Assembly (NCBI GenBank): GCA_024233865.1
Contig: JACKPA010000012.1
Span: 64,001-128,000, forward strand
Length of the DNA: 64,000 nucleotides
Source of the DNA: Leptospiraceae bacterium
GTDB lineage: Bacteria; Spirochaetota; Leptospiria; Leptospirales; Leptospiraceae
Direction: 5' to 3'
Numbering within the stretch: position 1 is the first letter of the stretch; each line of letters opens with the position of its first letter. The position numbers and the translations under genes are program-made. This document shows, piece by piece, positions 27,320 to 64,000 of this stretch. The notes under the pieces are model-generated. The model was not told the origin of the DNA. It saw nothing but the letters and a program-made list of their open reading frames with translations, and ran no database searches.

Positions 27320-27817
27320 TTGCATTTATTTCCGTATAAAATAGCATTATTACAAGAAATTTTAATTTTCAAGGAGAAAAAATCAATGAAAATATATATT
27401 CTTATATTATTAGTTATTCTATCCCACCTAACAATTGGCAGCTTAGTTGCTCAAGTCCAACAAAAAGAATCGTTTGAATTACCACAAAGACCCAGAATTC
27501 GTTACAAAACAATTGATAAAAAACCAATTCGGTTGGAAGGGGTAGTTAAAAAAAAGATGTGGTCAAAATCTTTAAAAAGCTACTGTGCACAAGGTAGTGA
27601 TTATATCGTTCTTCAAACCAAAGACAAAGAATACGTTTTAGAGTTTAAAAATGATGAAATGAAAAGTAAATATAGTAATGGCAGAAAAAATGTAAAGCTG
27701 AAAGGGAAGAGAATGGTAAAAATCATTCCTACTTCAAAAAATCCAATGGAGCAACATCCCGTTAGTTATGGTGATAAAGATGAATTTAGCTGTGAAATAT
27801 TTAGGGTTCTTCCATGA
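27320..27817 (+). CDS. Secreted hypothetical protein
   Basis: Probable start at MKIYILILLVILSHL (~27383) with an upstream GGAG. Stop overlaps the next gene. Confidence 0.4.
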   Translation: MHLFPYKIALLQEILIFKEKKSMKIYILILLVILSHLTIGSLVAQVQQKESFELPQRPRIRYKTIDKKPIRLEGVVKKKMWSKSLKSYCAQGSDYIVLQTKDKEYVLEFKNDEMKSKYSNGRKNVKLKGKRMVKIIPTSKNPMEQHPVSYGDKDEFSCEIFRVLP

Positions 27818-29541
27818 AGTTATATATTCTTGTTTTCTTTTTTATTTTTGTTTTGCCCTTTATGTTATTCTCTCAAAACGTAGAAAAGCCTGCGGAAGAA
27901 ATTCCTGTTGATTCGATTCAGTCTCCTAATGATTTTCCGTTGCCTACTCGAATGGGTAGAAAAAAGTATCACAGATATGTCGAACTTCTTTCTGCTGAGC
28001 AGAGTGAAATTTTAATTAATTATTTTGAACCAAAAGATTTGATAGAAAAGGAGTTTATTTTATCTGTTAAACTTACCAATCCCCTACTCTTCCCAAAATA
28101 CTTCAAAAAAAAAGAAGGCATTGGAGTTATTCCGGATTTCGGCATTCGCCTAAATCGGAATATTAGATTGTATTTAGCTCCTTACCAGCATGAAGAAGAA
28201 ATGGGTAAAGCTATACCCAATACGGAAATTTCCAATAAAACCGATGAATACTACTTTTTTGCATCCACTGATTCCAAAATTCCAACAGGTCAAGTAGTTG
28301 ACGTATCTATCTATAAAACGGAAGAAGCAATTGAACCCATTCATTCCATCACCTATCAAATGCCAGACAGACCTCAAAACTATCCTATAATCAATGAAAT
28401 CACTCCTTCTGCAGGAATTGCCGGTGATACAATTACTATCCTCGGAAAATATTTGGGTAGCAGGGCTGAAAACATCACGATTCTACTGACACAAGGAAGC
28501 AAGAGTATAAAAATCCCTACTCTGTATCTATCTCATTCTGATAAGACAGGAATCGATGAGATTAAATTTGACATACCATATAACTTTAGCGCTGAGAGAC
28601 TCAAGCAATACCAGAGTATTAAGTCTATATGGGAGTTGACCTCTTTTAACGTAAAGGTATTTCACAATTACTATCCTTCTGTAAACGATGTGGAAGTTAA
28701 AATACTCCGAGAGAAATGGAGGATGTATATGTTTTTGATCAGTTTAAGCTTTATTGTACTGTTTATCGTTATGGTAGCCTTTATGACCAAAACATGGAAC
28801 TTTCTTCCAGATGTTTTGATTGATAGACGTTCCAATTCATATAGCTTATCTAAGTTTCAGGCTTTTTGTTGGACCATCACTCTGTTTGGAAGTTATCTTT
28901 TTGTGGCAATTTGCAATGGAGTTTTGATTGGGAAAATTCCTGATTTTAACCTGTCTTTGCTTGGTTTATTAGGGATCAGTTATGCTGGACTCATTGGTTC
29001 AAATACAATCGACAAACGGAATCCGAAAAATAAATTGAGAAAAACCAAACCATCACTGGGTGATCTAATTTCTCATAATGGTGAAATCGACATAACCAGA
29101 TTGCAAATGTTTGGATTCACACTCATTACGATTTTTTTATACTTTTTTAATCTTGCTAATTCCAATATTTTAGAAGGTTTACCCAGTATTCCCGATTCGC
29201 TACATACACTTTTGCTAACAAGTCAAGGTGGTTTTTTGGGTGGAAAATTGATGGGTGATAAAATAACCGTTATGCACATTGAACCTTCTGTGATTGATAT
29301 CTCGAATAAAAATGCAAGCATAAGTATTATAGGAAATGGCTTTATGGATGGGATAAAGGTTATGTTAGATGGGTATAAACCAATACGAGCTGATTTTGAT
29401 GACCCTAGTACGATTTCCGTTTCTCTACCTGAGATAAAAAAGGTAGGAGTAAAAAGCATTACCATAATTCCTACGTTTGGAAATACGTTTTTAATCAAAG
29501 ATGCTATTGAGTTTGTGGATGAAAAAATAGAACAAGTGTAG
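27814..29541 (+). CDS. Membrane protein with IPT/TIG-like domains
   Basis: Signal peptide. IPT-like ITPSAGIAGDTITILGKYLG and ISIIGNGFMDG. Central cluster of 3-4 TM segments. Confidence 0.5.
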   Translation: MKLYILVFFFIFVLPFMLFSQNVEKPAEEIPVDSIQSPNDFPLPTRMGRKKYHRYVELLSAEQSEILINYFEPKDLIEKEFILSVKLTNPLLFPKYFKKKEGIGVIPDFGIRLNRNIRLYLAPYQHEEEMGKAIPNTEISNKTDEYYFFASTDSKIPTGQVVDVSIYKTEEAIEPIHSITYQMPDRPQNYPIINEITPSAGIAGDTITILGKYLGSRAENITILLTQGSKSIKIPTLYLSHSDKTGIDEIKFDIPYNFSAERLKQYQSIKSIWELTSFNVKVFHNYYPSVNDVEVKILREKWRMYMFLISLSFIVLFIVMVAFMTKTWNFLPDVLIDRRSNSYSLSKFQAFCWTITLFGSYLFVAICNGVLIGKIPDFNLSLLGLLGISYAGLIGSNTIDKRNPKNKLRKTKPSLGDLISHNGEIDITRLQMFGFTLITIFLYFFNLANSNILEGLPSIPDSLHTLLLTSQGGFLGGKLMGDKITVMHIEPSVIDISNKNASISIIGNGFMDGIKVMLDGYKPIRADFDDPSTISVSLPEIKKVGVKSITIIPTFGNTFLIKDAIEFVDEKIEQV

Positions 29542-29542
29542 C

Positions 29543-29566
29543 ATGGTTCGGCTACGCCCACCATGT
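29543..29566. repeat. R1 element, degenerate left-arm copy (GGTTCGGCTACGCCCACCATG)
   Basis: Lies directly after the stop of the 27814-29541 gene. Confidence 0.4.
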
Positions 29567-29810
29567 TGTAAAAGTGCTGTTTGGATGGTAACCACAGATA
29601 CTGGATATTTTCCGTTCCTGTTTTTCCATACATCAGGTATCCAACCGTCTCACTGGAGCATCCCCAGTGCAACTCCACTGACGTTTTCTGGACGTTCAAT
29701 GCTCCAAAATACGTCACCTTCATTCTGTTAATATCATCCGACTTTTCCAGTGGTCGTTTGTTGCATCCTACAACCAAAATTGCCATGAATAGTATAAATA
29801 GTTTCAATAA

Positions 29811-29840
29811 CCCCCCTCGGTCCCCCCGTGAACGGGGGGA
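29811..29840. repeat. R2 G/C-rich hairpin element (CCCCCC-TCGGT-CCCCCCGTGAACGGGGGG)
   Basis: 6-bp G:C stem with GTGAAC loop, preceded by a second C6 run, in an otherwise ~35% GC region. Confidence 0.55.
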
Positions 29841-29842
29841 AG

Positions 29843-30472
29843 TCAAAAGCTCTTCAAAACAGACAGTTGCAAACCGCCGTTTCCGTAGCCGATGTATTTT
29901 TCTACAATTGCGTTTCCTCTCAGTCCCACTCGGACTACAAACCCTGCAAACTTTAGTCCCTGCCATCCGATTTCTGTCATAAACATTGGATCAGCACCCT
30001 CCGCGTGGTGAGCGGAGTCGAACCATACACCTCTTCTTCTTTTGAAGTTGATGTAAGATACTCCCACTCCAAAATTGCCATAAAAGTCGAGCATGGAACT
30101 TATCTTGTATCTGTATTGCAGGTAGAGTATGTTGTTCACCATTTTGTAGTCTGCGTCGGTCATCGAGCCTGGTCGAGATGTAGAGCGTGTGTATTCCAAG
30201 ATGTATCCCAATCGCATGGAATCCGATATATTCAAGAAATCCGGTTCAAACTGGAATCCTCCTCCAGCAGCAGCACCGTTTACCTTTCCTGCCGGTGTGC
30301 CATTTCCAAAATAGTGAAACTGTAGTCCGATCAAGTTTTCATCTTCTTCCTTTTTCACTGGTTCCGTCTTTTTGGTATCCGGTTTTTTTGCTTTGCTTGG
30401 CGGTGTTTTTTTTCCACTTTGAGCAAGCATCACACTTGGTAATAATAATACGATAAGCAATACTTTATACAT
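29843..30472 (-). CDS. Outer-membrane beta-barrel-like protein with Lys/Pro-rich N-terminal linker
   Basis: Signal peptide. Alternating hydrophobic beta-strand pattern, C-terminal aromatic (..KSF). Confidence 0.4.
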   Translation of the reverse strand: MYKVLLIVLLLPSVMLAQSGKKTPPSKAKKPDTKKTEPVKKEEDENLIGLQFHYFGNGTPAGKVNGAAAGGGFQFEPDFLNISDSMRLGYILEYTRSTSRPGSMTDADYKMVNNILYLQYRYKISSMLDFYGNFGVGVSYINFKRRRGVWFDSAHHAEGADPMFMTEIGWQGLKFAGFVVRVGLRGNAIVEKYIGYGNGGLQLSVLKSF

Positions 30473-30563
30473 ACGTTTTAATATCTACCACCGATACACA
30501 CAGATAAACACCGATAAAAATATCTGTGTACATCCGTGTTTATCTGTGGTGGAAAACCATATC

Positions 30564-30959
30564 TTAATCACAGTAATAATCTTCTTCACAATAGCCATAT
30601 TCGTCAATGTAGCAGACTTTCTCTTTGCTTGGGCAAGACGTTATGATGAGTGTGCTCCTTGTAATGGACGAAAACAATCCCACTACGAGTGTCACTACCA
30701 TGTCAACACCCGTTATCTTCTCTTGGAGTGCGTAAGGCTTATTTTTGTCCAAGCCGGAGAATACGGTTTCTGCGTCATTCTCTCCTAAGTCGGATGTGCC
30801 GTAGAATATCTTCCAGATCGTGACTTCTTTGGCAACTGCTCCACATACGTCAGACTTAGCTACCATTTTGATCCTGCCTTCTTTTGCCAAAGTAGCAGTG
30901 TCAACCGTCTGGCAATCAATCAACGCTAACAAACTAAATGTTAAAATCAAATATTTCAT
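30564..30959 (-). CDS. Small secreted Cys-containing protein
   Basis: Signal peptide; 131 aa. Confidence 0.35.
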   Translation of the reverse strand: MKYLILTFSLLALIDCQTVDTATLAKEGRIKMVAKSDVCGAVAKEVTIWKIFYGTSDLGENDAETVFSGLDKNKPYALQEKITGVDMVVTLVVGLFSSITRSTLIITSCPSKEKVCYIDEYGYCEEDYYCD

Positions 30960-30974
30960 ATAATCTCAATTGTA

Positions 30975-31028
30975 TGGTTCGACTACGCTCACCATGCGAG
31001 TCCGATCCCTGAGCGTAGTCGAAGGGAG
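30975..31028. repeat. R1 palindromic element, full copy, intergenic
   Basis: GGTTCGACTACGCTCACCATG-cgagtccgatc-CCTGAGCGTAGTCGAAGGGA: inverted arms with core TTCGACTACGCTCA. Confidence 0.6.
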
Positions 31029-31032
31029 CATT

Positions 31033-31941
31033 TTACGGCACTCCCAAGTCCCCTATCTGTATTGCACTGACTTCTTCCAGTTTACAAGTAAGTCCTGCTG
31101 CAAAGTATTCATTGAACGGAATATAGGTTGTTCCGCAAAGCGAAGCGGAAAGCAGACTGTTTATATTCACAATACTTGCTATGGGTACTACGGTTTCTAA
31201 TTTATTCAGGCATGCGTCCAAAGAACTTTTGGTATACTTTTTACTTCCTTCGATTTTAGAATACATAAATATTTGTCCGGCTAATGTAAAAGTTGCGTAA
31301 TCGGACATGGTACTGCCACTTGTGCTGGATGAAAAGTTTGAATTTGCACTAGAGCTGGAATCTACGAGTTGAGTCAAGGAAAACTCTATATCATAGGTAT
31401 AATCAGTGCCCCCTTTTTCGCATTTCATAAAAATATAATTAGATGTGGGTATGCTCTCATAATACTGATTTATGTTATTACTGATACTAGTATTGTAAGT
31501 AGAATATAAAGAACTTGAAGAATCATTTGTTAGCTCGTTAGAACTTGTTATATATATATAACAGGCAGCATATCCGCTTTTACCATTATAATAAAGAGTT
31601 CCTGCTGTTGTTACAGGCATATAGAACACATCCACGTCTGAGTCCGAACTGATTGTTCCTTTGATTCGAGTCGTTTTTTCCGATGTAGGATAAGTTGCCT
31701 GGTTTGCGGTTTTAAAGGTGTCGTTGCTTTCCGTATCGTTTGTTACATTATTGGTAGATGAGTCCGTAGGACAACTGTAGGTTGATGATGAAAATAACGT
31801 AGCTAATCCGATTCTGGAGTATTGGCTCACCTTTGCGGTGATCTTTTCTTTTGCTTTTTTCCCGCTTACGATCTCGTAACCTCCTGTATACATGCAACTT
31901 GATAGTATGAGTATGATTGTTAGAATAACTGTTTGTTTCAT
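31033..31941 (-). CDS. Ser/Thr-rich lipoprotein
   Basis: Signal plus lipobox LILSSC. Low-complexity S/T/N-rich sequence. Confidence 0.4.
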   Translation of the reverse strand: MKQTVILTIILILSSCMYTGGYEIVSGKKAKEKITAKVSQYSRIGLATLFSSSTYSCPTDSSTNNVTNDTESNDTFKTANQATYPTSEKTTRIKGTISSDSDVDVFYMPVTTAGTLYYNGKSGYAACYIYITSSNELTNDSSSSLYSTYNTSISNNINQYYESIPTSNYIFMKCEKGGTDYTYDIEFSLTQLVDSSSSANSNFSSSTSGSTMSDYATFTLAGQIFMYSKIEGSKKYTKSSLDACLNKLETVVPIASIVNINSLLSASLCGTTYIPFNEYFAAGLTCKLEEVSAIQIGDLGVP

Positions 31942-32699
31942 TTTATCTCCTTTTTTATTGAAGTGGTTAGTATCTGGTGGTTTGTGACAGGAAACTTTTT
32001 GCCACTCTCGCTTTTATCGTTGTTTTCTCCTTGAATTGCTTTGATGGTGTAATATCCGCCTGCTATTGGTACGAGTGCAGTTTTGATTATGTCGTGAGGG
32101 ATGTATATAACAATTTTAAAACCATTGCTTATAAGGTTGTAAAAGAAGTGTAAGGGTATTAAAAAAGTTAAACCTATAACCGGAGAACACTTTGTTGGTA
32201 AACCATCCTCTGAAATGGTGAGCACGTTTACACTGTACAATAAAAGATAGTCTATAATGCCAGTAACGATGCTAAATTCTGTCGATATTATTAAGATGTT
32301 GTCTTTGCAACATTCAGGGAGATTACAATTAGGTTGTTCATCAGGATGTTTGTAAAAATCACAGTTCTTATATAAATACCTCCCGCACTTAGAGAATACA
32401 GGGTAATTTTTAAAACTATCAGGATTTAATAAGACTTCAGGAGTCCTAAACCAAAGATAGTAAGGGTGTCTTTTTTCCTTATATATACAACGTCCAAAAG
32501 CTGATTTCAGTTTTTCTTTAGATACATTTTTATTAATAGATATGGCATCCCCTATCATCCAATCCCAAAAATTCTGTTTTTCATTAAATTGTATAGTAGA
32601 ACCTATCGTTACACAGTTCATTAAAAAGAGTTGTGTAATAAGGAAAATTATTAAATTTGTTTTGATATTTTTCACCTTTTTCGCTCTCTTTGATTTCAA
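31938..32699 (-). CDS. Hypothetical Cys-rich membrane-anchored protein; candidate immunity protein for the adjacent Rhs toxin tip
   Basis: Sits immediately downstream of the Rhs C-terminal ORF on the same strand. N-terminal TM segment. Stop overlaps the next gene. Confidence 0.35.
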   Translation of the reverse strand: MKSKRAKKVKNIKTNLIIFLITQLFLMNCVTIGSTIQFNEKQNFWDWMIGDAISINKNVSKEKLKSAFGRCIYKEKRHPYYLWFRTPEVLLNPDSFKNYPVFSKCGRYLYKNCDFYKHPDEQPNCNLPECCKDNILIISTEFSIVTGIIDYLLLYSVNVLTISEDGLPTKCSPVIGLTFLIPLHFFYNLISNGFKIVIYIPHDIIKTALVPIAGGYYTIKAIQGENNDKSESGKKFPVTNHQILTTSIKKEIK

Positions 32700-32772
32700 T
32701 TAATTGTCACACTTCTACACTCAGTGTGACAATTTAAGAAAAAATTATATCCTATCTAATTGGTTAAAAACG

Positions 32773-34059
32773 TCAACGGCAACGGCAAGGACAACATGGT
32801 AAAGGCTTCCTCTTTAAAGCATTAGCCCACTCTTTTTCCCATTTATCAAGACCTTCAGCTGGTGTTATTATAGGGCCTCCTCCTCCGCCTAATTCAGGAA
32901 AAGGATTACCAGATACATAATATTTACCCAAACCAGTTTGTTCTCCCATAAAACCTACAAATCCTTCAGACGCGAAACCCAGAGCACCTGCTATTGTGTT
33001 TCCTGTTGCACCTGCATTTTCCCCCAACGCTGCTCCTTCTTTCCCGTCTAAAACTCTTCCTAATTCCCTACCAAAGGTTTTCATAAAAGGTCCTGTAACC
33101 AACATTCCGATCATACTCGTACTTGCTATTGTAATAAGCCCACCCCAAGTAGTAGCACCAAATAAAATTGATGTGTGTAAAAAAACACCAGACAAGAAAT
33201 ATGAAGCTGTAGCTACGACTGCTATTTTGACCAAAGCCAATAATGCCCAACCTATAATAACAGCAGCTACTATCACAGCAATTCCAATTAAGATTTGTTT
33301 CAAACTCAACTTTGATAGTGGTTCAATGATTTGTCTATCTAGCCATACCCCAGCGTCAGAAAGTTGTTGACCACCCCATTTTCCAATACTACTCCGACTT
33401 ATTTGGTGTGATAAGCTATTTTGGTTATGGTGTTTCCCGAATATAAATTGATTAACCGTTTTTGCGGCTCTTTCAAGTCCTTTGGATGCCCACTTCAATC
33501 CTCCCGTTGCACTCTTAACCGCCCATTGTAGTCCACCAGTCATGTTTTTTACGATGTTACTAAACATCAAATCATACCTTGCATGACCGCTTGGGTCTCG
33601 GAAGTTGACGGGGTTTCCATTGGTATACATGTAAGGATTCATTCCCATAGCAGTGTTAGGGTCGGATTGGTTATCCGCTTGGATAAATCGACCGAGCATC
33701 GGATCGTAATATCGGCTTTTGTAGTAGTACAAACCGCTTTCGGAGTCTTCTTCCTGACCGGAATACTTATGTCGGAATATGTCCGGACCGCTTGAGTTTG
33801 TACGGTTGACTTCACCGTATGGTGTATAGGTAACGTAACTCCTTCCCGAATTGATGTCAACACCAGCTACCATCCTTCCGTTTCCATCTGTCAGCATACT
33901 CACACTACCCAAGTGATCGGGATGGATAAAGTGCATCCCCACAGTAGGTGTTCCCGCATAAACCGTTGATGGCGAAGGAGTTCCCAAAGGATCTGCTACG
34001 GAAGGTGTATCGGAAGTAATTCCCCCACCAGCCGCTTCCCAACAATCCGTCCGGTTCAT
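32773..34059 (-). CDS. Orphan Rhs C-terminal fragment: RHS repeat-associated core plus hydrophobic/Gly-rich C-terminal toxin domain
   Basis: DHLGS...YTPYGE...YYYKSRYYDPMLGRFIQADN is the RHS core signature. A DPSGH autoproteolysis-like motif is followed by ~280 aa with predicted TM helices, Gly-rich stretches and a C-terminal CCPCRCR. Confidence 0.65.
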   Translation of the reverse strand: MNRTDCWEAAGGGITSDTPSVADPLGTPSPSTVYAGTPTVGMHFIHPDHLGSVSMLTDGNGRMVAGVDINSGRSYVTYTPYGEVNRTNSSGPDIFRHKYSGQEEDSESGLYYYKSRYYDPMLGRFIQADNQSDPNTAMGMNPYMYTNGNPVNFRDPSGHARYDLMFSNIVKNMTGGLQWAVKSATGGLKWASKGLERAAKTVNQFIFGKHHNQNSLSHQISRSSIGKWGGQQLSDAGVWLDRQIIEPLSKLSLKQILIGIAVIVAAVIIGWALLALVKIAVVATASYFLSGVFLHTSILFGATTWGGLITIASTSMIGMLVTGPFMKTFGRELGRVLDGKEGAALGENAGATGNTIAGALGFASEGFVGFMGEQTGLGKYYVSGNPFPELGGGGGPIITPAEGLDKWEKEWANALKRKPLPCCPCRCR

Positions 34060-34237
34060 CCGAATGATAGACCAAAGAAAGGTTTGGCTGTACGTCTTTT
34101 GTTCCGGGTGGGACTTCTATTGGGTAAGAAGCATTTGCCTTTCCGTTGTCATCCACCACAACCTGTGGCATTGCTTGCGGAATTGTTCCTGTGGAATTCG
34201 TATCCAGATGTACCAATAACAAGCACAGTGCCATCAT
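33905..34237 (-). pseudogene. SpvB-type N-terminal fragment of a decayed Rhs/Tc-toxin gene, frame-shifted relative to the downstream Rhs core ORF
   Basis: ASYPIEVPPGTKDVQPNLSLVYHSDEPDGLLGSGWW matches the SpvB N-domain consensus (PievPpG..G..PsLsLsYsS...G..G.GW). Overlaps the 32773-34059 ORF in a different frame, implying a large internal deletion and frameshift. Confidence 0.45.
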
Positions 34238-34450
34238 AAGTATAGCATTAAGTGCCTTTTTAGTGTTATATATATATATGGTAATTGTGTTAATTTTGTG
34301 AAGAGTTTCATGTGAATCACCTCGTGTGTTATCGTCCTAAAGACAAAGTGATTGGAAACAAAAATTTTTTGCAAGTCTTTTATGAATTATTTTTCCAAGC
34401 GGAAAGAAAAAAATTACGTTTTTCCCCCGAATAGCTAAAATTCACTTTAA

Positions 34451-34486
34451 GCTTCATTTACCCCCGTTCACGGGGGTAAGTGAAGC
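34451..34486. repeat. R2 G/C-rich hairpin element (inverted orientation) embedded in a 16-bp-arm palindrome GCTTCATTTACCCCCG-TTCA-CGGGGGTAAGTGAAGC
   Basis: Core CCCCCGTTCACGGGGG is the reverse complement of the 29822 and 63741 cores. One mismatch in the 16-bp arms. Confidence 0.55.
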
Positions 34487-34682
34487 CAAAACCTGAATTT
34501 AAACCGAATGGGGGGGAATAAATTCGTTAATTATGTCTTTTTATTCAGTAATTTTTTCATTCTTTCCAATTCTTTTTTTAATGAAAGGAAAGAAAAGAGT
34601 TTTTTCAAAAACCTTATTGCCAAAAAATAGGAATATCCGTATACTAAAAAACAAGCATAAATCCCAAAAATCACGGTAAACT

Positions 34683-35516
34683 ATGTTAACTTATAAAGAA
34701 AAAAAGAACTTTAATATAGAAGAAATGGAGATTGAGGACAGTAAACCGGTGGACAACATTTTTTCTGAAAAGCAAATGAGACTACTTACCGAGCCTTTGT
34801 ATACCTCATGGAAACCCAAAGAGCACATAAATTTTTTGGTAACTGCCAATGTTGGAATATTCACCGAAATATTAGAAAACCCAATTGTTCCAGATGTTTT
34901 GCTAAGTCTGGAAGTAGATATACCGGAAAGCAGAAAAAAAAAGGAAGATTTATGTTACTATTTGGACAAAATCGGCAAAGCACCGGAGGTAGTGATAGAA
35001 ATCGTATCCAATAAGGAAGGAAACGAATTGGATAGTAAGCTAAAAGACTATGGGAAAATCGGAGTTTTGTACTATACCGTTTATGATCCCGATTTACACA
35101 TATTGAAAGGAAATCCGGTAAGTAGCTTTAAGTATAAAAAAGGAATGGCATTTAGAATAGAAAAATCTTGGTTTGAGGAAGTGGGTTTGGGACTCAGATT
35201 ATGGGATGGAATTTTTGAGAATCAACATGGAACATGGCTTAGGTGGTGTGACTACTTTGGAGAAGTGATTCCTACCGGAAAAGAGTTGGCAGAACTGGAA
35301 AGACGTAAAACGGCAATAGAGCAAAAACAGAGAATAGAAGCTCAAAAACAAAGAATGGAGGCTCAAAAACAAGCTGAAGTAGAGAAAAATTGCAGAATGG
35401 AAACTCAAAAGCAAGCTGAAATAGAGAAAAATTACAGAATGGAAGCACAAAGACAAGTTGAACATTTGGCTCAAAAGTTACGTGAACTTGGCTTTAATCC
35501 GGAACAAGATTTGTAA
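34683..35516 (+). CDS. Uma2-family (DUF820) putative endonuclease with C-terminal EAQKQ coiled-coil repeats
   Basis: PDVLLSLEVDIP...PEVVIEIVSNKEG..D...K...Y...GVLYYTVYDP is the PD-(D/E)xK Uma2 signature. 39-bp tandem repeats at ~35330-35450. Confidence 0.7.
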   Translation: MLTYKEKKNFNIEEMEIEDSKPVDNIFSEKQMRLLTEPLYTSWKPKEHINFLVTANVGIFTEILENPIVPDVLLSLEVDIPESRKKKEDLCYYLDKIGKAPEVVIEIVSNKEGNELDSKLKDYGKIGVLYYTVYDPDLHILKGNPVSSFKYKKGMAFRIEKSWFEEVGLGLRLWDGIFENQHGTWLRWCDYFGEVIPTGKELAELERRKTAIEQKQRIEAQKQRMEAQKQAEVEKNCRMETQKQAEIEKNYRMEAQRQVEHLAQKLRELGFNPEQDL

Positions 35517-62286: not shown

Positions 62287-64000
62287 TTACCCTACTTTAA
62301 AAGTTTTGTTTTGTATGCCTCGATAATAATTATGGATTGTCGTTTTTTCTACGATGCTCATTTTCGGAAAACTGTCCAAGACTGTTAGCATCTCTTCTTC
62401 TGTAAGTCCATACAGATGGAACACCATTGCGTCGATCTGTGCTTCCCACTTGGAGGCCTCACCCCCGTCCCCTCTCCAATCTGGAGAGGGGAGTTGCTTT
62501 GCGGCAAGTATCTTGTCTACGAGGGTGATGAATGGCTTTTGCAAGTCTGAATTGTCGATTGGTGCTTTTGGGATTGGGAGTTGTTCAACATATTGAGTAA
62601 AAAATCTATATACATGGCTACCTAGTGAATTTGCTATTTTTTGGTAATAAAAATTTAACAAATTACTATTTAATATACCTAAAATATACTTTGAATTACT
62701 ATCTATGATATAAGATGTGTTATTAAAATAATAATTTTTTTCAACCATTGAGTACGAAACATTTTTAGATATATCCGGATATACAATTTTTGACTTTTCA
62801 AAAATAAAATAATAGTCACAATCCCTTAACTCCCACCAATAACTGCCTTGATCTAATCTTTCGTAAAGACCTTTTCCTTTTCCAATTCCAGAATCTCCAA
62901 GTTTTTTTAAATGATTGTAAATTTCAGGATAGGATTTTTTAAAAAACTGTTCCGGATTTTCATTTCTTCTATTTATGTTTGTCCACCCTGATGGTATTAA
63001 AATTAACCATAAATTATTCCATTCATAAGTATATCTGTGAATATCTCTCCCTCTTAAAATGGGTTTAATAATTTCATTGTTCTTTTTATCTTTTTTGCAA
63101 AGCAATTCTTTTGTTTCTGTATTAATGATAAATGCTTCATTAAAACCCGTTATAAGTCCCCTATAAATTTTTATACCTAAATCTTTTAATTTTACTCCTC
63201 CTTGTTCTATCTTCTTCTTTATATTTTGTTCCTTAAAATCTCCTAGAGAAAACGATGTATCCTCTAAATCATTTTGATTAATCAGATGACCTTCGATGTT
63301 AACATATTCTGGTATATTGAACTTATCGTAATCGGGTGAATCAATTGTTACAACACGTAATCCATTCGTAGGGACAGGTCTCAGACCTGTCCCTACATTC
63401 TCACGTTGAAATATCGTTACATTCGTATCCACCGTTGCAGATTCAAATACTTTTTGCCCTCCAAAATCTATAATTTGTAATAGCTTAGTTTTTGTCTTAA
63501 AAAATTTTCGTAAATTCTCTCCATAACGAGCTCGCATCCATTTATTACTTGTGATGAATGTTAAAACACCTTTATCTTTTAATAAATTAAATCCACTTTC
63601 ATAAAAATAAGTGTATAAATCGGAAATAGAATTAAAAACAGTATAATATTTTTGTAAAATAGGCTTAATTTCCTTAATAGATTCTTGTCTTACATACGGC
63701 GGATTTCCAATCACAACATCAAAGCCACCTTCCCCCCCAGCCCCCCGTGAACGGGGGGAGTTACTTGCGTTAGTTACTCCCCAGCTCGCGGGGGGCGGGG
63801 GGGAAATCCCAAACATGTGTTCAGGGTCGAACCAATCCGCAGATTTGAGTCTGTCGTAAGGATTCCATTCCGCAATCTTGCTAGCTGAATCTTTAGAAAA
63901 CTGATTTTTTAGAAGAAATTCAGAAATTTCTTTGCGTTTCTCTTTATCTTTCTCTCGCAGTTCTTTTTTCTCTTTATAAGTCCTTGCATCAAAGTGTTGT
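62287..64000 (-). CDS. Type IIG/PglX/MmeI-like N6-adenine DNA methyltransferase (N-terminus beyond window) carrying four in-frame palindromic insertions
   Basis: The reading frame stays open upstream of the listed Met to the window edge (..AEWNPYDRLKSADWFDPEHMFG..). Motif IV is FDVVIGNPPY. The C-terminus ends IDAMVFHLYGLTEEEMLTVLD, typical of Eco57I/MmeI/PglX-family enzymes. Palindromes at 62469-62491, 63368-63396 and 63741-63758, plus a G-run segment at 63781-63803, are all read in-frame. Confidence 0.65.
   Translation of the reverse strand, partial: QHFDARTYKEKKELREKDKEKRKEISEFLLKNQFSKDSASKIAEWNPYDRLKSADWFDPEHMFGISPPPPASWGVTNASNSPRSRGAGGEGGFDVVIGNPPYVRQESIKEIKPILQKYYTVFNSISDLYTYFYESGFNLLKDKGVLTFITSNKWMRARYGENLRKFFKTKTKLLQIIDFGGQKVFESATVDTNVTIFQRENVGTGLRPVPTNGLRVVTIDSPDYDKFNIPEYVNIEGHLINQNDLEDTSFSLGDFKEQNIKKKIEQGGVKLKDLGIKIYRGLITGFNEAFIINTETKELLCKKDKKNNEIIKPILRGRDIHRYTYEWNNLWLILIPSGWTNINRRNENPEQFFKKSYPEIYNHLKKLGDSGIGKGKGLYERLDQGSYWWELRDCDYYFIFEKSKIVYPDISKNVSYSMVEKNYYFNNTSYIIDSNSKYILGILNSNLLNFYYQKIANSLGSHVYRFFTQYVEQLPIPKAPIDNSDLQKPFITLVDKILAAKQLPSPDWRGDGGEASKWEAQIDAMVFHLYGLTEEEMLTVLDSFPKMSIVEKTTIHNYYRGIQNKTFKVG

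Follow-up and report, generated by a model that had tools for sequence, protein, structure and literature searches.

A probable orphan-like remnant of an Rhs toxin/immunity module with a hydrophobic tip in a Leptospiraceae metagenome-assembled genome

The locus described here raises the question whether a protein annotated as an Rhs protein is a working, delivered toxin, or what has been left of one. It lies in a stretch of 64,000 nucleotides (nt) of a Leptospiraceae metagenome-assembled genome (MAG; assembly GCA_024233865.1, contig JACKPA010000012.1, positions 64,001 to 128,000), and this whole stretch is called the window in the following. The protein in question has 428 amino acids (aa) and is identical to NCBI MCP5496746.1, which is annotated as 'RHS repeat-associated core domain-containing protein' (204,607-bp contig). 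Its gene and the partner genes are all located on the minus strand. To our knowledge, Rhs biology in Leptospiraceae is essentially unstudied. The results indicate that the locus is probably a degenerate, orphan-like Rhs polymorphic-toxin/immunity module, i.e., a module of a known kind with a new tip/immunity family, and that the annotated core protein is the 3' leftover of a gutted gene and not a working delivered toxin. Decay of this kind is ordinary in bacterial toxin loci.

Two overlapping open reading frames (ORFs) form the remnant. The first ORF (33905-34237, minus strand) encodes 110 aa, and residues 1-71 represent the start of an SpvB-type Rhs protein. The Pfam profile SpvB (PF03534) matched residues 31-70 with an E-value of 2.4e-5 and 24.1 bits, compared to a curated gathering cut-off of 22. 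The match extends over profile positions 4-43, that is, 40 of the 287 positions, and it is best regarded as a fragment, not as a domain. This stub was 61% identical to the N-terminus of a 1488-aa ORF with SpvB, FG-GAP and RHS matches in the related locus L010, and 50% identical to a fragment in the locus L004. The remainder of the ORF is an out-of-frame read-through tail, for which a function is not expected. The second ORF (32773-34059, minus strand) encodes the 428-aa product and overlaps the first one in the +1 frame. The NCBIfam profile TIGR03696 (Rhs_assc_core) matched residues 78-159 with an E-value of 3.3e-23 and 82 bits (cut-off 32.5), and the ORF carries HPDHLGS, the sequence YYYKSRYYDPMLGRFIQADN (= YYYKSRYYDPMLGRF) and DPSGH. 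The Rhs aspartyl autoprotease motif is DPxG-x18-DPxG (PMC10684867); here it was found as DPNT, 18 residues, DPSG and then H, with a T in place of the first G. The pre-core and core part was 58-67% identical to P0002 and P0007. The ATG at 34059 falls by chance within the out-of-frame SpvB fragment, and no Shine-Dalgarno-like sequence was found ahead of it. An earlier sequence-only reading of the window had proposed an SpvB-type N-terminal piece that overlaps, in another frame, an ORF with the Rhs core hallmark and a DPSGH cleavage-like motif, and all of this was verified, with profile matches above the cut-offs. It had also let the core ORF begin with the DHLGS motif, which has to be corrected, as the 428-aa ORF starts 48 residues earlier.

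Neither the 110-aa nor the 428-aa ORF gave a match to the RHS_repeat and YD-shell profiles (PF05593 and PF25023). The shell sequence is also absent elsewhere in the 64 kb, as a tblastn search with the 1488-aa L010 protein matched the window at its first 82 residues only. Of the characteristics of a functional full-length Rhs gene, the core motif and a variable tip with a small downstream gene are present, and a shell, a trafficking domain and one continuous frame were not found in the remnant.

The locus L010, a 7.5-kb contig of the MAG GCA_020440835.1, was used as the full-length-type reference for mapping the junction between the two ORFs. In L010 the leader is followed by the 1488-aa ORF (MMALCLLL..; SpvB, FG-GAP and RHS_repeat matches) and then by P0002 (391 aa), which comprises an insert containing transmembrane (TM) helices, PPFWLAAS, the pre-core, the core, the linker and the first part of a hydrophobic tip. 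It is followed by a 144-aa piece with ..FGRELGR.. and then by a gene for a Lepto_Lipo_YY_C lipoprotein. The N-side homology of the window to L010 stops at the GW of the SpvB GxGW motif (GGC TGG), and the C side, which begins with TGGTGGGGGAATT, corresponds to AAT GGA GGA GGT CTC (NGGGL) in L010. The microhomology at the break is TGG(T), at 34027-34030. Relative to L010, 4,651 nt (about 4.65 kb, or about 1,550 codons) are absent, and the lost segment comprises the larger part of SpvB together with the FG-GAP region, the YD shell and the TM insert. Thus, an illegitimate deletion at a microhomology of 3-4 nt removed about 4.65 kb, from the end of the GxGW motif of SpvB to shortly ahead of the pre-core. 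As TGG is a whole codon on one side and occupies codon positions 3, 1 and 2 on the other side, the join is out of frame by construction, and the two frames are offset by +1. BLAST extended the SpvB similarity past W71 to about residue 85 (R..SFG). This extension was rejected; its DNA match was weaker and gappier than that of the pre-core in the other frame, and therefore the junction was placed at the microhomology. A deletion derivative had been proposed from the sequence alone, and the junction turned out to be mappable. The missing part had been assumed to be a shell of about 1-2 kb, while the loss was in fact about 4.65 kb and included the SpvB/FG-GAP part besides the shell. As the shell and the trafficking parts have been lost, the product can neither be packaged and processed inside a shell nor be delivered.

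The source of the window is a MAG, and Rhs genes and the leader are repeats at which assemblies break, and thus it was considered that the junction is an assembly or sequencing artefact and that the real gene is full length. However, the exact 110-aa ORF that spans the junction is also present in L012, a contig of the independent ENA assembly ERZ27309393, which is identical to the window without mismatch from 34279 to 33905. In addition, other ENA contigs carry P0129, a 134-aa variant of this ORF, and P0127, a variant of the downstream ORF with 439 aa; P0127 begins with the same MNRTDCWEAAGGG and differs from the 428-aa ORF by two in-frame indels. The presence of the same junction in L012, P0127 and P0129 shows that it is not an assembly or homopolymer error, and the deletion is thus a property of a natural population. 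There is also no sequence common to both sides that would be long enough for a jump in a de Bruijn graph. An artefact is therefore hardly credible. A sequencing error in the G5 run at 34022-34026, as a special case, was excluded by the positions at which the homologies end and by three agreeing assemblies. An Escherichia coli Chi octamer (GCTGGTGG) lies exactly on the junction (34025-34032, minus strand). The window contains two copies, compared to 0.5 expected, and 10 of 100 shuffled sequences reached two; Chi was not accepted as meaningful, and its position is probably a coincidence.

The removal of one G from the same G5 run would fuse the two frames, and therefore they might be joined in expression by programmed +1 frameshifting or by transcriptional slippage, yielding a shell-less mini-Rhs protein with SpvB start, core and tip that spans ..GSGWWGITSDTPSV... 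In the locus L004 the tip likewise follows the fragment in the +1 frame, but this locus has no comparable slippery site and carries a TAA in the target frame at its junction, and the offset in L008 is -1. In the window, the positions at which the two deletion ends were joined suffice to produce the offset, neither a stimulatory stop nor a rare codon is located downstream, and the 70-aa SpvB stub has no known function. Joint expression of the two frames is thus very improbable.

Table 1. Positions of the features of the Rhs remnant and its neighbours in the window
Feature	Position	Strand	Basis
Conserved Rhs leader (promoter/5' region), repeat ahead of several Rhs units	34238..34542	-	DNA alignment
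First 71 codons of an SpvB-type Rhs gene (MMALCLLL...PNLSLVYHSDEPDGLLGSGWW)	34025..34237	-	Pfam SpvB match
Deletion junction; N side ends GGC TGG, C side begins TGGTGGGGGAATT	34025..34032	-	Window DNA aligned to both L010 ends
Out-of-frame read-through tail of the 110-aa ORF (GNYFRYTFRS...SLG*)	33905..34024	-	+1-frame DNA homologous to Rhs pre-core (ITSDTPSVADP..)
5' part of the 428-aa ORF: chance ATG, pre-core (GGGITSDTPSV..GMHFIHPDHLGS), complete RHS-associated core to DPNT-x18-DPSG/H	33583..34059	-	TIGR03696
Post-cleavage linker, residues 160-218 (ARYDLMFSNIVKNM..WASKGL..HHNQNSLSH)	33406..33582	-	Conserved in P0004, P0009
Specific tip, residues 219-428 (about 210 aa)	32776..33405	-	Hydropathy; homologues P0003, P0121
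Perfect hairpin with 12-bp stem (AUUGUCACACUG..AGUGUGACAAU) in the toxin-immunity spacer	32703..32732	-	Folding
Immunity candidate, 245-aa predicted lipoprotein	31938..32675	-	Identical to P0130; linkage to tip
Lepto_Lipo_YY_C-type lipoprotein, 302 aa	31033..31941	-	TIGR04452 E=1e-5, below cut-off

The next question was what the surviving 3' part encodes. The DPSGH motif is followed by a linker that is shared with P0004 and P0009, which have different tips with HExxH motifs, and thus residues 160-218 are not part of the specific tip. One of the indels of P0127 is an in-frame insertion of 11 aa within the linker, where it lengthens a repeat of the unit GG(L)xWAxK. The linker of about 60 aa may be a common entry or translocation module. 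After about residue 218 the protein diverges from other Rhs proteins. The specific tip consists of a hydrophobic block (residues 255-326, window 33082-33297), a conserved FGRELGRVLDGKEGA motif, a Gly-rich part and a Cys-rich PCCPCRCR end. The hydrophobic block is almost uncharged, K278 and H295 being the sole exceptions. The Kyte-Doolittle mean over 19 residues was 2.97 at residues 256-274 and about 1.0-1.3 across residues 291-329, and hydropathy thus gives one to two strong and one to two weaker candidates for membrane helices. The GxxxG motifs GRELG, GAALG, GENAG and GEQTG are located after the hydrophobic block, in the Gly-rich part. The sequence-only reading had described a C-terminal domain of about 280 aa with TM helices, GxxxG stretches and a terminal CCPCRCR. 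The hydrophobic tip with this end, the candidate helices and the GxxxG motifs are indeed present, but the first 60 or so residues after DPSGH belong to the shared linker, and the GxxxG motifs lie outside the hydrophobic block. Hydrophobicity and composition suggest that the tip may insert into membranes or form pores.

Homologues of the tip were searched for with a word-indexed search of 5.8 billion protein clusters and with a full HMMER profile search of 1.84 billion representatives. Only two homologues were found, P0003 (partial, 60-65% identity) and P0121 (62-65%). The HMMER search returned the same three tip sequences plus P0126, which was rejected as a spurious repeat protein. A weak likeness at the level of motifs was seen to P0007 and the L010 tip, which also have a TM block and (F/I)GRE(L/I)GR. 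The tip thus appears to represent a very rare, previously undescribed family of hydrophobic Rhs tips, with three sequences in public data. An end-to-end alignment of the 428-aa product with a non-Rhs protein would have spoken against its Rhs nature, but no such protein was found; its homologues are RHS-annotated, bear a YD shell or align with the core, except for the partial, tip-only P0003 and P0121. The ratio of nonsynonymous to synonymous substitution rates (dN/dS) of the tip was 0.13-0.22, which points to purifying selection during most of the divergence. As dS is at or near saturation, this ratio mostly describes the long period before the deletions. The G+C content was 0.47-0.48 across the core remnant, compared to 0.30-0.37 in the flanks and the immunity gene.

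The gene downstream of the tip was analyzed as a candidate for an immunity gene. The ORF at 31938-32699 (minus strand) has its likely start at a GTG at 32675 and encodes a protein of 245 aa that is 100% identical to the NCBI-annotated P0130. The protein has a lipoprotein-type signal MKNIKTNLIIFLITQLFLMN/C (..LFLMN/C), eight Cys, and hydrophobic segments around residues 127-154 and 163-205. A homologue is located directly after the tip homologue in L003, with a spacer of 38 nt and identities of 60% for the tip and 47% for the immunity protein, and another one directly after the P0121 tip in L004; the adjacency is thus conserved at identities of 60-65% and 47-50%, respectively. In L007 and L001, a second immunity subtype (P0124, P0125) is found after another Rhs tip (P0025/P0071), which is hydrophobic as well. 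The N-terminal three quarters of the immunity protein vary with the tip type, while the window protein, P0123 and P0124 have the same last 50 or so residues. On the DNA level, the switch point in the immunity gene is at window position 32110, in L003, L007 and L012, and the 3' end of the gene (31938-32110) is a conserved recombination handle. The dN/dS of the immunity protein was 0.24-0.43, and it likewise mostly reflects purifying selection in the time before the deletions. The 245-aa protein is the best immunity candidate, since its homologues come after the same tip in two diverged loci and its N-terminal part changes with the tip type. The pattern of tips and immunity genes looks like that of a polymorphic cassette that is exchanged by recombination, with the 3' handle inside the immunity gene. 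The downstream Cys-rich membrane protein had been named as immunity candidate from its position, and the linkage and co-variation in diverged loci support this choice, while the description changes to a predicted lipoprotein of 245 aa that starts at 32675. An AlphaFold2 model of the immunity protein, based on four sequences, had a mean predicted local distance difference test (pLDDT) score of 36.8 and was unusable. The related MAG H7A23 encodes three members of the family, i.e., P0130, which is identical to the window protein, P0123 (53%) and P0125 (31%). The identical 3' ends of P0130 and P0123 suggest gene conversion between paralogous loci. The spacer of 97 nt between the stop of the toxin gene and the start of the immunity gene folds with a free energy (dG) of -21.1 kcal/mol (z -3.7), and its hairpin (Table 1) could be an attenuator, a processing site or an operator.

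In the window, the remnant is preceded by the leader and by a divergent Uma2-family gene (34683-35516, plus strand; putative restriction endonuclease-like). The C-terminus of the Uma2-family protein contains a run of (M/I)E(A/T)QKQ.. repeats. The leader was about 95% identical to that of L010 (window 34503-34215; 14 mismatches and three one-base gaps in 286 aligned bases) and about 97.7% identical to that of L012, while the coding sequence after the leader was only about 65% identical to L010. Three other assemblies break in the leader: L014 ends at 34513, L010 starts at 34503, and the homology of L012 starts at 34542. L012 overlaps L007 by 927 nt at 100% identity, and the combined contigs give the gene order in another strain. 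There, a different Rhs tip (C-terminus P0071/P0025) is followed by P0124, the lipoprotein gene, two further genes, a complete Kelch-like gene, the leader and then the same remnant; the lipoprotein gene and the two following genes are 99.3% identical to the window. As the remnant follows another Rhs unit in that strain, it is orphan-like there, and the earlier alternative of a displaced cassette is thus supported besides that of a deletion derivative. The order Uma2-leader-remnant of the window could have arisen from the order of the other strain by leader-leader recombination, or by a collapse of the assembly across the leader.

The preferred explanation, that of a degenerate, orphan-like module, can be formulated as follows. 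The intact ancestor would have resembled L010, with the leader, one long gene for the SpvB N-terminus, the FG-GAP propeller, the YD shell, the TM insert, the core, the linker and the toxin, and the immunity gene. In such an intact parent, cleavage at DPSG/H would free the tip, which may enter the cytoplasmic membrane of a target cell via its hydrophobic block of about 70 residues and dissipate the membrane potential, as Tse5-CT does. The 245-aa lipoprotein would be the membrane-located cognate immunity protein. The locus may have been kept because the leader still drives the immunity gene and thereby protects the cell from relatives that fire this toxin. The remnant would also stay available as a recombination cassette, with the leader as handle on the 5' side and the end of the immunity gene and the lipoprotein gene as handles on the 3' side. 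The locus thus offers a new candidate toxin/immunity pair for Leptospiraceae, with a lipoprotein immunity family of at least two subtypes, each after a different hydrophobic tip, and an example of strain-level exchange of cassettes via a fixed breakpoint inside the immunity gene.

Several observations weigh against this explanation. A comparison of the tip with Pfam (E-values up to 10) gave nothing better than E=0.19, insignificant membrane-protein noise; the tip profile against all PDB chain sequences gave nothing better than E=0.34 and no hit to a toxin; and no homology of the tip to Tse5-CT or another described toxin or pore-forming effector was detectable. The AlphaFold2 model of the tip, based on three sequences, was unusable (mean pLDDT 40.5). 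A distant homologue of the 245-aa family (L013), the sole match of a metagenome scan with this family, follows an apparently unrelated, non-Rhs-like ORF. The Rhs genes of L008 and L010 are directly followed by a gene for a Lepto_Lipo_YY_C lipoprotein, and a 245-aa homologue is absent there. The 428-aa ORF is intact in all copies and the P0127 indels are in frame, which fits a coding use as well as a recent decay. Lastly, the link between the leader and the Uma2-family gene is given by a single MAG contig, which runs through a repeat where other assemblies are interrupted.

The lack of homology to a known toxin and the distant family member outside an Rhs context would be compatible with a hydrophobic C-terminal region that is not a toxin but a membrane anchor or a structural part, and with the downstream lipoprotein as an unrelated neighbour. 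However, the region sits after the DPxG cleavage motif, i.e., at the position of an Rhs toxin, and it is polymorphic, as at least two tip types precede one immunity family and the linker is also found with HExxH tips. In addition, it stays linked to a small gene that co-varies with it. A non-toxic role is thus decidedly improbable.

The gene that follows in L008 and L010 leads to another candidate for the immunity protein, the Lepto_Lipo_YY_C-type lipoprotein of 302 aa, with the 245-aa protein as, for example, an accessory or second immunity protein. Its homologues (39% identical) come directly after the Rhs genes of L008 and L010, the tips of which share the TM block and (F/I)GRE(L/I)GR. Its gene overlaps the immunity gene by 4 nt (ATGA), which indicates translational coupling, and it has a good AGGAG ribosome-binding site. 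In contrast, L005, L007 and L012 have a 100% identical copy after another tip/immunity pair, and thus the protein does not co-vary in the comparison of the window with L007/L012, whereas members of the 245-aa family come first after the tip in three loci and change with it. That the 302-aa lipoprotein is the true partner is therefore distinctly unlikely, and it is best ranked second, as an immunity or accessory candidate.

The intact ORF might also mean that the remnant is still a working gene, so that the 428-aa product or a shorter one from an internal start is made in the cell without a shell and acts with the lipoprotein in a toxin-antitoxin (TA)-like or addictive manner, comparable to orphan Salmonella Rhs toxins. 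In this respect, not only the window tip is encoded by an intact frame, but also the tip remnant of L004, which is still an intact ORF of 175 aa with a dN/dS of 0.13. On the other hand, no Shine-Dalgarno-like sequence was found before the ATG at 34059 or before the TTG at 33309 (a TTG start is used for P0121), the low dN/dS mostly reflects the time before the deletion due to the saturated dS, and the start codon lies inside the out-of-frame SpvB fragment by chance. A lipoprotein exported to the periplasm would also be an odd antidote for a cytoplasmic toxin, although both could meet in the inner membrane. Taken together, a working gene seems unlikely, if worth keeping in mind, and a degenerate module is preferred.

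The degenerate module is not the only broken Rhs gene of its kind, and related loci, which were reached via homology of the tip or the core and not via the SpvB stub, were compared. L010 and L011 are also broken, with a frameshift immediately ahead of DLVAQLT and a tip that is interrupted by a G9 run (L010 4700-4760 and 5880-5910). An independent Logan contig is 100% identical to L010 and ends at the G-run. In L004, which was found in two samples, the SpvB stub reaches to GVGWSL and is followed in the +1 frame by only the TM part of the tip; this surviving part is the 175-aa ORF mentioned above, with its dN/dS calculated against the window. In L008/L009 (two assemblies) a 47-aa stub ending with ..SIPINLP is followed in the -1 frame by the last 135 or so residues of the shell, the core and another tip. 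All loci found with the leader/MMALC family thus keep the leader and the first 43-70 codons, yet they are broken. In the three independent internal deletions (window, L004 and L008/L009) the upstream breakpoint is within the first 43-70 codons of a pre-core part of about 5 kb, two of the three breakpoints lie no more than about 5 nt apart, directly behind GxGW, and the ORFs of the tips are intact in all three loci. If breakpoints were distributed uniformly over about 5 kb, the probability of three within the first 210 nt would be roughly 1e-4, which is a rough estimate and not a test. The retention of a promoter for the immunity gene explains the survival of the leader, but not fully why so little else of the 5' part remains.

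This pattern could mean that leader, SpvB stub, tip and immunity gene are a regular, maintained module type of this Leptospiraceae clade and not a random wreck. In one form, the module may be a shell-less, internally expressed toxin/immunity unit (addiction or TA-like) that is driven by the Rhs leader. In another form, it may be a cassette in which the leader and stub on the 5' side and the end of the immunity gene and the lipoprotein gene on the 3' side are handles for looping out, swapping and re-joining to shell genes. A maintained module type is quite improbable; should the recurrent retention of the leader and the first codons not be due to chance, such loci would show how the expression of an immunity gene is preserved while the toxin gene decays. 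Leptospiraceae often carry truncated Rhs genes that are followed by small genes, and a JGI contig has three such Rhs genes in a row. One example from a complete genome is L015 (Leptospira sp. GIMC2001, CP115468.1, 533-12453), with a 1276-aa Rhs gene, a small gene, a 737-aa orphan Rhs gene, a Kelch-type beta-propeller gene, a 678-aa orphan Rhs gene and small genes; a repeat of about 250 nt is located ahead of both orphan Rhs genes.

The search for further loci and for regulatory elements yielded the following results. Profile scans of genome contigs with the alignment of the N-fragment or with that of the immunity family gave no match, and neither did a metagenome scan with the N-fragment. The leader contains a strong hairpin at 34446-34491 (dG -31.8 kcal/mol, z -6.4) on the palindrome CCCCCGTGAACGGGGG. 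This palindrome, which resembles repetitive extragenic palindromic (REP) elements, is present in three copies in the window (29823-29838, 34461-34476 and 63742-63757), compared to zero expected, and two of the copies bracket the whole Rhs remnant module. A search of 30500-35500 with Rfam gave a single sub-threshold snoRNA match, on the leader hairpin, which was taken as noise, and scans with promoter and terminator consensus sequences gave numbers of sites not above those in shuffled sequence.

Some further observations concern the neighbourhood and the family. A 247-aa ORF (29223-29966, minus strand) is a chimera, the middle of which encodes the first 74 or so residues of the Kelch-like lipoprotein that is complete (327 aa) in L012. 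The Kelch-like homology ends at 29565, where the ORF enters the 3' end of a convergent TIG-domain gene (27814-29541, plus strand), and thus a second rearrangement boundary is indicated. An inverted repeat of 28 nt (30002-30029 and 30971-30998; 93% complementary) flanks about 940 nt with a LIC_13076-like gene for 131 aa. The Leptospiraceae Rhs proteins P0004, P0007, P0008, P0009 and P0025, as well as L010 (4731-5110), have an insert between shell and core with two hydrophobic helices, of which the second resembles a lipoprotein signal (..LFTFTQCG), followed by PPFWLLAS..DTPSV. P0010 (483 aa) starts with such a signal-like piece, and then has only the core and a tip.

In enterobacteria, it has been documented that orphan rhs-CT/immunity modules occur, that they recombine with main genes and that they may be expressed internally (PMC3150448; PMC7043789). 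Like the orphan rhs-CT/rhsI modules of Enterobacteriaceae (Poole et al. 2011, PMC3150448; Starsta et al. 2020, PMC7043789), the window remnant combines a partial core, a variable tip and an immunity gene without a delivery part, and it belongs to a polymorphic locus with recombining cassettes; in the strain of L007 and L012 it is also located downstream of another Rhs unit. In contrast to these orphans, it keeps its own leader, start codon and first 70 codons, which indicates that it arose by an internal deletion and not by displacement of a C-terminus. Further differences are that no full-length rhs gene lies ahead of it in the window and that the 3' handle lies inside the immunity gene.

With regard to the tip, the most similar system is Tse5-CT/Tsi5 of Pseudomonas aeruginosa, in which a hydrophobic Rhs tip depolarises cells and forms pores and the immunity protein is membrane-integral (PMC9637101, PMC10684867). 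In Tse5 (RhsP1) as in the window, the tip after DPxG-x18/19-DPxG has several predicted membrane helices and lacks an enzymatic signature, and the window immunity protein is also predicted to be membrane-located by its lipobox and hydrophobic segments. However, no sequence similarity is detectable, and Tsi5 is a small protein with two TM helices, whereas the candidate of the window is a 245-aa lipoprotein. Tse5 is an intact PAAR-Rhs protein that is delivered by a type VI secretion system (T6SS), whereas the window remnant is shell-less, of the SpvB/FG-GAP type and from a spirochaete lineage, and no T6SS gene was found among the ORFs examined.

Immunity genes that outlast toxins are known from the orphan immunity arrays of the T6SS clusters of Vibrio cholerae (PMC5361080). 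Here, too, immunity survives the loss of a usable toxin and alleles are swapped via conserved flanks, although the toxin class and the delivery system are different, and the window keeps most of the toxin tip. Lastly, the architecture of the L010-like parent corresponds to the fused TcB-TcC-like shells (SpvB-N/FG-GAP/RHS) of ABC toxin complexes (PMC7861908, PMC11067744). In contrast to these proteins, only 70 SpvB residues survive in the window, and the pairing of tip and immunity gene indicates an antibacterial rather than an insecticidal use.

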